From NCBI GenBank assembly GCA_017499595.2, contig CM039010.1, forward strand, positions 620,001 to 684,000: DNA of 64,000 bases. The letters run 5' to 3'. Source of the DNA: Psilocybe cubensis. Taxonomy: Eukaryota. Positions 35,459 through 36,507 of the stretch are shown one piece after another; the stretch's first letter is position 1; every line of letters starts with the position of its first letter. A program made the position numbers and the translations under genes. The notes below the pieces were generated by a model. The model did not search any database and was not told the DNA's origin. It saw only the letters and a list, made by a program, of their open reading frames with translations.

Positions 35459-36507
35459 CTACATATCAATGTGATACTGTTCGCGAAATCTGTCTAGAAT
35501 ACTACGCAACTCCTTTTGGTTCTCCTGAACAGCCTCCAAAGACTTCTTTGCCTCCTCAGTCTCACGACGAGACTGTTCTAGCTGTCGTTGGAGATCAAGT
35601 GTTTCTTGGGTACGTGCATGAATCAAGTTTCGAGTGAGAGTAGAAAACTGTGTTCCAATTTGTCCTACTTGCTCAGCTGCATCACGCCTTAGTCGAGGGG
35701 AAGCATAGCTAATGGACCCAGAGCGTGCTGTAGCATGCTGTGCTCCAATGAAGAGCCAGCAACCTGTCTCTTTCGAGATATCTTCGCACTGTGCAGCACA
35801 TGATATCAGATTGTACAGCATTTAATACAAAGCCATACCTTTTCAATGATAGAGTTAATTGTATTTGTAAATTTCTTGACTGAACGAGTATTATCGGAGA
35901 TTGGAGAGGGAAGACGATGCCCTCGAACAATTTCTGACAAGATAATTGAAGTTTAAATTGAGTAGAAGACAAAAAGGTTAACTCACGATAGACAGAGGAG
36001 CCTCGATATGCTCCATCAACATATCCATTGTATGGATTCTGGGCACTAGTCCGATTGGGTCGACTTGCAGAGCCAGTAGACGAGCTCTGGGATGACGAAC
36101 GTACAGAAAGGCTGGCCAGATGCGAGGATGTCATAATATGTATTCCTCTAGCTCCGGAGTTTGGGGAGGAGGCTTCTGCTTCTGCAGACTGTCGGTGATG
36201 CAGTACACTGACACTGGGTACATCGCTTCTTGGAGTAGCAATTTGCTAATGAATGGACTAGTTCAACCAAAAATATGTTAGATGATAGAATGAAGCCACT
36301 CACATTTGAAATATTGCTCATTGGAGTACCAACATGCTGATGAGTAGACGGGCCCAAAATAAAAGGGTTGGGAAGTTGAGACGGGCGAGATGGTGTAATA
36401 GCCGGCGATGTAGACGGAGTAGCACACACTGGTGATTCGTCCCCAAGGCCTGTAGGCAAAGGCAAGTTGCGCTCCGGTGCAGGAGTAGATGCACGAAGAC
36501 TCTGCAT
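35459..36507 (-). CDS. Cargo protein with Ser/Pro-rich N-terminus, degenerate MADS-box-like segment and C-terminal coiled coil (multi-exon; 5' end uncertain)
   Basis: Splicing intron 35789-35838 gives PISDNTRSVKKFTNTINSIIEKCEDISKETGCWLFIGAQH...ISYASPRL, followed by LDLQRQLEQSRRETEEAKKSLEAVQENQKEL. Confidence 0.6.

Follow-up and report, generated by a model that had tools for sequence, protein, structure and literature searches.

A predicted MADS-like coiled-coil protein paired with a CxC4-type, KDZ transposase-like gene in Psilocybe cubensis

Introduction

We examined a 64,000-nucleotide stretch of the genome of the mushroom Psilocybe cubensis (GenBank assembly GCA_017499595.2, contig CM039010.1, positions 620,001 to 684,000 of the forward strand), which is referred to below as the window and numbered from its first letter. 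A gene on the minus strand at 35459-36890 encodes a protein of 367 amino acids (aa) whose core very probably has a MADS-like fold, as judged from structure prediction. It lies divergently beside a gene encoding a transposase-like protein with a CxC4 domain, and this linkage to a gene resembling those of the KDZ (Kyakuja-Dileera-Zisupton) transposons looks obligatory. On balance, we think it probable that this protein is the second product of a two-gene, CxC4-type KDZ DNA-transposon unit that has spread through the Agaricales, in which it would act as a DNA-binding partner. Few eukaryotic transcription factors have been studied as thoroughly as the MADS-box proteins, which, to our knowledge, have not been reported as transposon-encoded.

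Gene model and the 50-nt intron

An initial annotation of this locus, made by eye, had proposed that a MADS-like peptide becomes readable when a 50-nt intron is removed. The peptide is indeed present on the minus strand once positions 35789-35838 are taken out. The gene and the parts of its product are as follows.

35459-36890, minus strand: whole gene of the protein with the predicted MADS fold; seven exons, ATG at 36890, stop at 35459 included, 367 aa
36890-36858, 36803-36741, 36684-36559, 36501-36304, 36245-35987, 35933-35839 and 35788-35459, minus strand: the exons, in minus-strand reading
35789-35838, minus strand: phase-0 intron of 50 nt (GTATGG...GCACAG) between K258 and C259 in helix I
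36604-36648, minus strand: N-terminal Cys-x2-Cys-x8-Cys-x-His knuckle, residues 45-59, followed by a helix (predicted local distance difference test, pLDDT, 84-87 for residues 40-70)
35597-36053, minus strand: predicted MADS-like core domain, residues 205-322, broken by two introns (AlphaFold2 (AF2) model, structure searches and hhalign)
35892-35765 (helix I), 35752-35741 (strand 1) and 35713-35702 (strand 2), minus strand: predicted parts of the core, which also comprises an N-terminal arm, a short helix and the start of a long helix
35474-35674, minus strand: predicted C-terminal long helix or coiled coil, residues 297-363 (AF2, pLDDT 80-94)

Joining the exons by their coordinates gives a coding sequence of 1104 nt, or 367 codons, with 0 internal stops, and all six introns are of the GT-AG type with lengths of 50-58 nt. 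Exon 6 (35933-35839) ends in ...ISDNTRSVKKFTNTINSIIEK and exon 7 (35788-35459) starts with CEDISKETGCWLFIGAQHATARSGSISYASPRL; when the intron between them is kept in, the reading frame closes, as seen in the list of open reading frames (ORFs). The last exon, used as a query, matched four annotated P. cubensis proteins. The closest of these, P0003 (JR316_0008618, 367 aa), shares 343 of 367 residues with the window protein (93%), and 116 of 118 in the core, and is collinear with the window gene in tblastn. The annotated proteins P0003-P0006 place the same junction as the 50-nt intron, and among 154 family representatives there are 20 unspliced ORF fragments whose start coincides exactly with the boundary of this intron; nine of the 20 end in Q, the in-frame translation of the CAG acceptor. 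Helix I is modelled unbroken over the K258/C259 junction with pLDDT >95. Together with the canonical splice sites and the closing of the frame when the intron is kept, the independent annotations, the ORF fragments and the modelled helix provide indirect evidence that this intron is removed.

One DNA sequencing run (X2) contains two versions of the locus between 35495 and 36671 at about equal depth. The first matches the window without a difference, whereas the second departs from it at 20-28 positions per 300-370 nt, about 7%, which is consistent with the presence of two diverged haplotypes of a dikaryon.

Protein architecture and distribution of the family

From its N-terminus, the protein comprises a Cys3-His knuckle, a long Ser/Thr/Pro-rich linker of ~150 residues that is modelled with low confidence and disordered, a conserved basic core of ~118 residues with the predicted MADS fold, and a coiled coil. 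A coiled coil after the core had been anticipated from the initial reading of the sequence and corresponds to the AF2 helix listed above, for which Pfam and PDB returned coiled-coil matches only. The knuckle motif occurs in 64 of 124 family members. In the form Cys-x2-Cys-Pro-Gly/Asn-Arg-Pro-Leu...Cys-x-His it resembles, weakly and below threshold, the C-terminal part of DDE_Tnp_1_6 (PF13751) in 4 of the 124 members, with expectation values (E) of 0.02-0.13 in the clade of the window protein, a hint that the knuckle too may be of transposase origin.

A word-based search identified eight relatives in Psilocybe, Gymnopilus, Galerina, Hypholoma and Tricholoma, the latter four genera giving a single match each. 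An exhaustive HMMER search with an alignment of these relatives returned 440 representatives at E<=0.001, with 294 at <=1e-10 and 73 at <=1e-30. All 20 representatives that were sampled are 'hypothetical proteins' from the Agaricales, in the genera Pholiota, Tulosesus, Cyathus, Mycena, Marasmius, Paramarasmius, Psilocybe, Agrocybe, Favolaschia, Coprinellus and Agaricus. Pfam lacks a model for these proteins; searches with four full-length proteins and 124 members gave only coiled-coil noise and the weak DDE_Tnp_1_6 similarity. Two members greatly exceed the others in length, P0111 of Mycena polygramma (1593 aa) and P0142 of Marasmius crinis-equi (843 aa), and may represent merged gene models or real fusions. 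Since none of the five longest members (478-1593 aa) contains a Pfam domain, including any transposase domain, fusion to a transposase is unsupported. The initial annotation had called the protein degenerate. This is appropriate for the window copy at the positions that align with the K-R-K contact residues of MADS boxes, which are non-basic, but the domain itself is basic and belongs to a conserved family of at least 440 representatives rather than to a decayed single copy.

A two-gene unit with a CxC4-domain partner

The surroundings of the gene contain a divergent partner, two central repeat arrays and a pair of flanks.

38651-41701, plus strand: divergent partner gene for a ~900-aa CxC4-domain, KDZ-transposase-like protein; collinear in tblastn with residues 1-920 of P. 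cubensis paralogs
37107-37516 and about 37750-38401: two 63-nt tandem-repeat arrays of 6.5 and ~8-10 copies, in opposite orientation, between the divergent genes
35237-35377, plus strand: left flank, with a motif pair at 35341-35350 and 35359-35369 and an outer stretch at 35237-35274
41840-42316, minus strand: right flank, ~70-nt tandem units with four copies of an 11-nt motif (41866, 41936, 42066 and 42164) and an outer stretch at 42271-42305

The two genes are 1.76 kb apart, and an ORF of the partner (39666-40718, plus strand) matches the CxC4 domain PF18717, described as 'associated with KDZ transposases', with E 3.9e-46. In a look-up based on a protein language model, the neighbours of residues 330-917 of a partner paralog carry PF18758 KDZ, CxC5 or CxC6 domains (scores 0.96-0.86). 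UniRef names several of the CxC4 partners, P0160 and P0161 among them, 'HMG domain-containing' or 'SWIM-type domain-containing'; neither an HMG nor a SWIM domain was found in them by Pfam at E<=1.

The same pairing recurs elsewhere in the genome. All six CxC4 paralogs listed for P. cubensis have locus tags one above or below that of a MADS-like gene, as follows (MADS-like gene first).

JR316_0007405 / JR316_0007406
JR316_0010220 / JR316_0010221
JR316_0006809 / JR316_0006810
JR316_0006700 / JR316_0006699
JR316_0008750 / JR316_0008749
JR316_0012771 / JR316_0012772

These pairs cover six of the eight MADS-like genes of the species, and the remaining two belong to the subfamily of the window, for which the adjacency is seen in the window sequence. 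Adjacent tags also occur in Marasmius crinis-equi (V5O48_013296/013297), and in Galerina, Gymnopilus and Mycena polygramma a single contig carries both genes. Divergence of the two genes runs in step: their paired identities are 99.4/99.5, 99.7/99.7 and 99.7-100/95% within subfamilies and 53-60/48-62% between them, with a Pearson r of 0.98 over 15 comparisons that are not independent of one another. Pairs that are 95-100% identical are found on contigs of 3.62, 3.34, 3.13 and 2.30 Mb, and one subfamily has three copies.

Repeated motifs delimit the pair. The 11-nt motif at 35359 on the plus strand recurs in the window solely at the four positions of the right flank, on the minus strand, so that inverted copies stand just past both stop codons. 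Its five matches compare with 0.94 expected in 64 kb, and five were reached in 0 of 100 shuffles. Inverted similarity also joins the outer stretches 35237-35274 and 42305-42271. Between the genes, the 63-nt arrays form an inverted repeat with arms of ~400 nt that are 90-93% complementary, and long stop-free frames cross them on both strands. The pairing, the congruent divergence, the flank motifs and the central arrays therefore indicate one unit of ~7 kb, at roughly 35.2-42.3 kb, that behaves as a single duplicating entity. The description of the gene as transposon-borne in the initial annotation is supported by its tie to a CxC4/KDZ-type neighbour, which extends to the homologues.

These observations bear on the most serious alternative, namely that the protein is a lineage-specific host transcription factor of the Agaricales with a divergent MADS-like domain and no role in transposition, and that the CxC4 neighbour has been domesticated or is merely linked. 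We consider this unlikely, although several points speak for it and weigh against a transposon. The family is conserved and low-copy, to judge from the single matches in four genera, its core fold is predicted very confidently (see below), and its five longest members lack a transposase domain. The partner has no detectable KDZ catalytic domain, since the Pfam model PF18758 found no match and CxC4 alone was detected at E<=1 in six of six partners and the window ORFs. Neither a target-site duplication nor sharp termini were found beside the candidate ends of the window unit. Moreover, adjacency in other genomes was read from locus-tag numbers rather than from DNA, and two units are common to the contigs of 3,335,923 and 2,299,398 bases, which may be haplotigs or carry one segmental duplication. 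However, several findings speak against a host factor: the pairing is repeated in all six listed P. cubensis paralogs and in Marasmius, copies on different contigs are up to 99.7% identical and the two genes diverge in step, an inverted motif brackets exactly the two genes, and Paramarasmius has at least six diverged paralogs. We therefore favour a duplicating two-gene unit, of which the window copy may be a mobile representative.

The core has a predicted MADS-like fold

Since the wide structural search with a full-length model was swamped by the coiled coil, the core was refolded alone by AF2 from 33 diverse core segments. The resulting model is confident (pLDDT 95.8, predicted template modelling score 0.80), with helices at 37-62, 85-90 and 92-117 and strands at 67-70 and 80-83 (core numbering, used for positions from here on). 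It contains an arm, a long helix I, a two-stranded antiparallel hairpin and helix II, the elements by which a MADS fold is recognised. In Foldseek, ranks 1-25 are nearly all SRF, MCM1 or MEF2 chains (E 0.03-0.4, probability 0.92-1.00, template modelling (TM) score to the target 0.55-0.71). The best match is 1hbx_B (E 0.029, probability 1.00), and MEF2A aligns with a TM score of 0.70 and a root-mean-square deviation (rmsd) of 3.7 over 69 columns. With the whole-protein model, which was built from only eight sequences (pLDDT 60), SRF and MCM1 also made up the top eight Foldseek matches, at E 0.2-0.5.

An aligner independent of Foldseek, run over 48,161 representative chains, placed MEF2D first (Z 7.0, rmsd 6.7 over 72 residues), followed by MEF2A (Z 6.3, 4.7 over 70) and SRF (Z 6.1, 6.6 over 80), with SEPALLATA3 at rank 18; just nine chains in this wide search had Z>=5. 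In a second structural comparison the best 17 entries were all MADS proteins, with Z 6.2-7.1, and the next unrelated chain scored 3.6. The structural alignments put model residues 25/26 on MEF2 residue 2, at a sequence identity to MADS boxes of 14-20%. The proposal that the spliced core folds as helix, beta-hairpin and helix is thus supported by the structure predictions for the spliced protein, in which MADS chains ranked first.

For a comparison of sequences, a degenerate MADS-signature pattern was searched over metagenome contigs, giving 118 loci, of which 44 intact boxes formed the MADS alignment (A4), whose invariant positions are partly fixed by the search pattern. As a positive control, four of these boxes were checked with Pfam, and all four matched SRF-TF, with E from 1e-22 to 1e-28. 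With hhalign, the family core (alignment A3) aligned to the 44 boxes from position 34 to 87 on MADS positions 11-62, over 52 columns with one 2-residue gap (score 20.6, P 0.003, HH probability 10.5%), in the same register as the structural alignments. A core profile of 116 sequences scored 18.6 against the MADS boxes. Column-shuffled MADS alignments scored 10.4 +/- 1.9 (maximum 15.9, n=162) and block-shuffled ones 11.6 +/- 1.4 (maximum 15.4, n=161), with none of either kind reaching 18.6, so that 0 of 323 shuffles attained the observed score. The alignment to SRF that had been drawn by eye appears to be more than chance, as hhalign reproduces its register and no shuffle matches the score. In addition, the nearest named cluster to residues 205-310 of the protein in the language-model look-up bears SRF-TF, with a score of 0.75.

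The core and the MADS boxes (PF00319; SRF, MCM1, MEF2; structures 1srs, 1hbx, 1mnm and 1egw) share the order arm, long helix, beta-hairpin and second helix, and in hhalign they share the register of the pattern I-x-N...F...[KR]...E-L-S...G and of the hydrophobic strand. Both have a basic helix I and arm, and both give a symmetric dimer via helix I and the first strand, in the present case by prediction. The family differs from MADS boxes in having a longer arm before helix I with its own G-x-V-x-G-A-x-R-G motif, a hairpin loop that is two residues longer, a sequence missed by the Pfam model, linkage to a transposase-like gene and, in the 20 sampled members, restriction to the Agaricales. A MADS-type domain followed by a long coiled coil recalls the plant MIKC-type proteins, in which the MADS domain precedes a keratin-like coiled coil, and could likewise give higher-order oligomers and DNA looping. 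Unlike the plant proteins, the window protein has an N-terminal zinc knuckle and the disordered linker ahead of the domain, and no relationship between the two is detectable beyond the fold.

We regard common ancestry as the fairly probable cause of the MADS likeness. A convergent origin, in which a simple helix, beta-hairpin and helix motif has arisen separately in a non-DNA-binding factor for oligomerisation or scaffolding, is improbable, more so than the host-factor alternative. It is here that the evidence against a relationship to MADS boxes has to be set out. No similarity is seen at the level of hidden Markov models (HMMs): Pfam SRF-TF had no match at E<=10 in the exon translations and four full-length proteins, it was not among the 25 most-matched Pfam families over 124 members, and profile searches of PDB sequences found no MADS chain. 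The HH-suite probability lies at 5-10% and at most 10.5%, and a variant with a pre-built query HMM gave a one-column alignment (score 10.0, E 0.29), which does not agree with the other runs and was set aside. Z scores of 6-7, and at most 7.1, are moderate, since the tool regards values <8 as possibly reflecting a common arrangement, and designed helical proteins reach Z 5-6 in the wide structural search. The language-model score of 0.75 is below the threshold for a lead. It speaks against convergence that three methods concur on family and register, that none of the shuffles reaches the hhalign score, that the predicted dimer geometry fits MADS, and that the domain is basic, with conserved Arg and Lys on the arm and helix I, as described in the next section.

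Predicted homodimer and basic surface

A homodimer of the core was predicted with an interface score (ipSAE) of 0.89 in three runs, compared with 0.00 for the best control; the pLDDT of the partner chain was >=87 and >=98% of contacts were common to the runs. The mark used to call a dimer had been calibrated on proteins of solved structure, being reached by 21 of 30 microbial and 17 of 29 eukaryotic proteins whose structures are pairs. Among proteins solved as single chains it was reached by 0 of 23 and 0 of 30, respectively. In the predicted dimer the closest helix contacts (51-51, 47-58 and 44-62) lay helix I antiparallel to helix I, and the closest strand contacts (68-68, 67-69 and 66-71) bring strand 1 onto strand 1 across the two-fold axis. 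MADS dimers have this layered arrangement of helix I and sheet. The helix and hairpin dimer on which the initial annotation had staked its interpretation is therefore predicted, with the caveat that the strong score may reflect memory of solved MADS dimers.

The core is positively charged, with a median net charge of +7 in the family and +6 in the window copy. Lys or Arg is conserved at positions 17 (91%) and 26 (94%) of the arm and at positions 42 (70%), 43 (62%), 46 (55%) and 54 (86%) of helix I, of which the window copy keeps R17, R26, K42, K43 and K54. Against this stands the finding that the K-R-K contact positions of MADS boxes are occupied by T-N-T, and the K-K positions by E-K, in the window copy, which does not retain the conserved contacts. 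Across the family, Arg is the majority residue (57 of 116) where MADS boxes have their first contact lysine, and the last contact position is K/R in 86%. The claim that the basic KRK residues have been replaced is thus true locally, given the T-N-T of the Psilocybe copy; it does not extend to the family, whose domain is basic and keeps its arm and helix I Lys/Arg. A candidate Cys-Cys-His-His metal site in the core (55, 64, 72 and 81) was dropped, all four residues occurring in just 31 of 116 members.

The initial annotation's idea of a dimerising decoy, which would pair with the host factors Mcm1/Rlm1 so as to titrate or redirect them, draws on the shared fold and dimer-forming layers and on the non-basic K-R-K-aligned positions of the window copy. 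It is very improbable given the confident homodimer, the protein's own coiled coil, the family-wide conservation of basic residues in the arm and helix I, and interface residues that must differ from those of MADS proteins because the identity is just 14-20%. The strong self-pairing prediction and the coiled coil instead favour a homodimer that works for the element.

A possible role in transposition

If the protein is the DNA-binding partner in a transposon unit, it would act as a symmetric MADS-style homodimer, in which helix I packs antiparallel on helix I and the two hairpins merge into one sheet, and would contact DNA through the basic arm together with the first half of helix I. Its targets would most probably be the inverted arrays of motifs in the flanks of the element, the central inverted 63-nt arrays, or both, and the coiled coil would perhaps allow a higher oligomer to form on the repeated motifs. 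Its job might then be to help the transposase-like partner to find or pair the ends, or to control the two divergent promoters. By analogy with the 'quartets' through which plant MADS proteins loop DNA, it is conceivable, though less likely than not, that an entire KDZ-type lineage in mushroom-forming fungi encodes its own MADS-fold coiled-coil protein to synapse end and centre motifs as a dimer of dimers.

Comparable arrangements are known in other transposons. CACTA elements encode the accessory protein TnpA. According to PMC12730594, PIF/Harbinger elements encode a Myb/SANT second protein, and KDZ transposons carry cargo genes such as TET/JBP (PMC12730594). As with the Harbinger Myb protein and TnpA, a small protein of DNA-binding type stands beside a transposase, co-duplicates with its partner and has motifs near the ends; it differs in that its fold is MADS-like, not Myb, and its function is proposed from the analogy. 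As in KDZ elements with TET/JBP, a second gene travels with the element, and the partner in the window has the CxC4 domain and KDZ-like language-model features, whereas the cargo is not a TET/JBP dioxygenase and the partner is not matched by the Pfam KDZ model.

Neighbouring features of the window

Other features of the window lie outside the unit. An ordinary host chitin synthase gene of class V type (6492-11444, plus strand) encodes a myosin motor head, cytochrome b5-like domains and Chitin_synth_2. Right after it begins a direct duplication of ~2.6 kb (11390-14718 and 22571-25199), ~11 kb apart, in two blocks (1313 and 1263 nt, 97% identical); it holds a stop-free frame of 363 aa (13482-14573 / 23938-25029) with no Pfam match. 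A frame on the minus strand that adjoins the right flank (42374-43441) has a weak match to HET (heterokaryon incompatibility), with E 0.0016, below the cut-off.

Significance

Both the fold and the strategy of serving a transposon with an accessory DNA-binding protein are known; their combination is new, in a family that Pfam does not cover. In the literature searched, which comprised sources other than subscription journals and supplements, we found neither a report of a MADS-like protein encoded by KDZ elements nor any account of the present family, and in the text of PMC12730594 the word 'mads' occurs 0 times.

The predicted structures suggest that a MADS-like DNA-binding partner is encoded by the mobile element itself. 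For at least 440 representative proteins, 'hypothetical' in every sampled genome, this provides a predicted fold and a function that can be tested, and it would add a second, non-TET type of cargo to KDZ elements. Because the unit comprises a single small protein and a handful of repeated motifs in 7 kb, it offers a compact system for asking what accessory DNA-binding proteins do for cut-and-paste elements, and whether they give rise to host regulators. If the interpretation is true, this would be the first transposon-encoded MADS-type protein, and it would point to a possible route for the spread, duplication and domestication of MADS-like DNA-binding modules.

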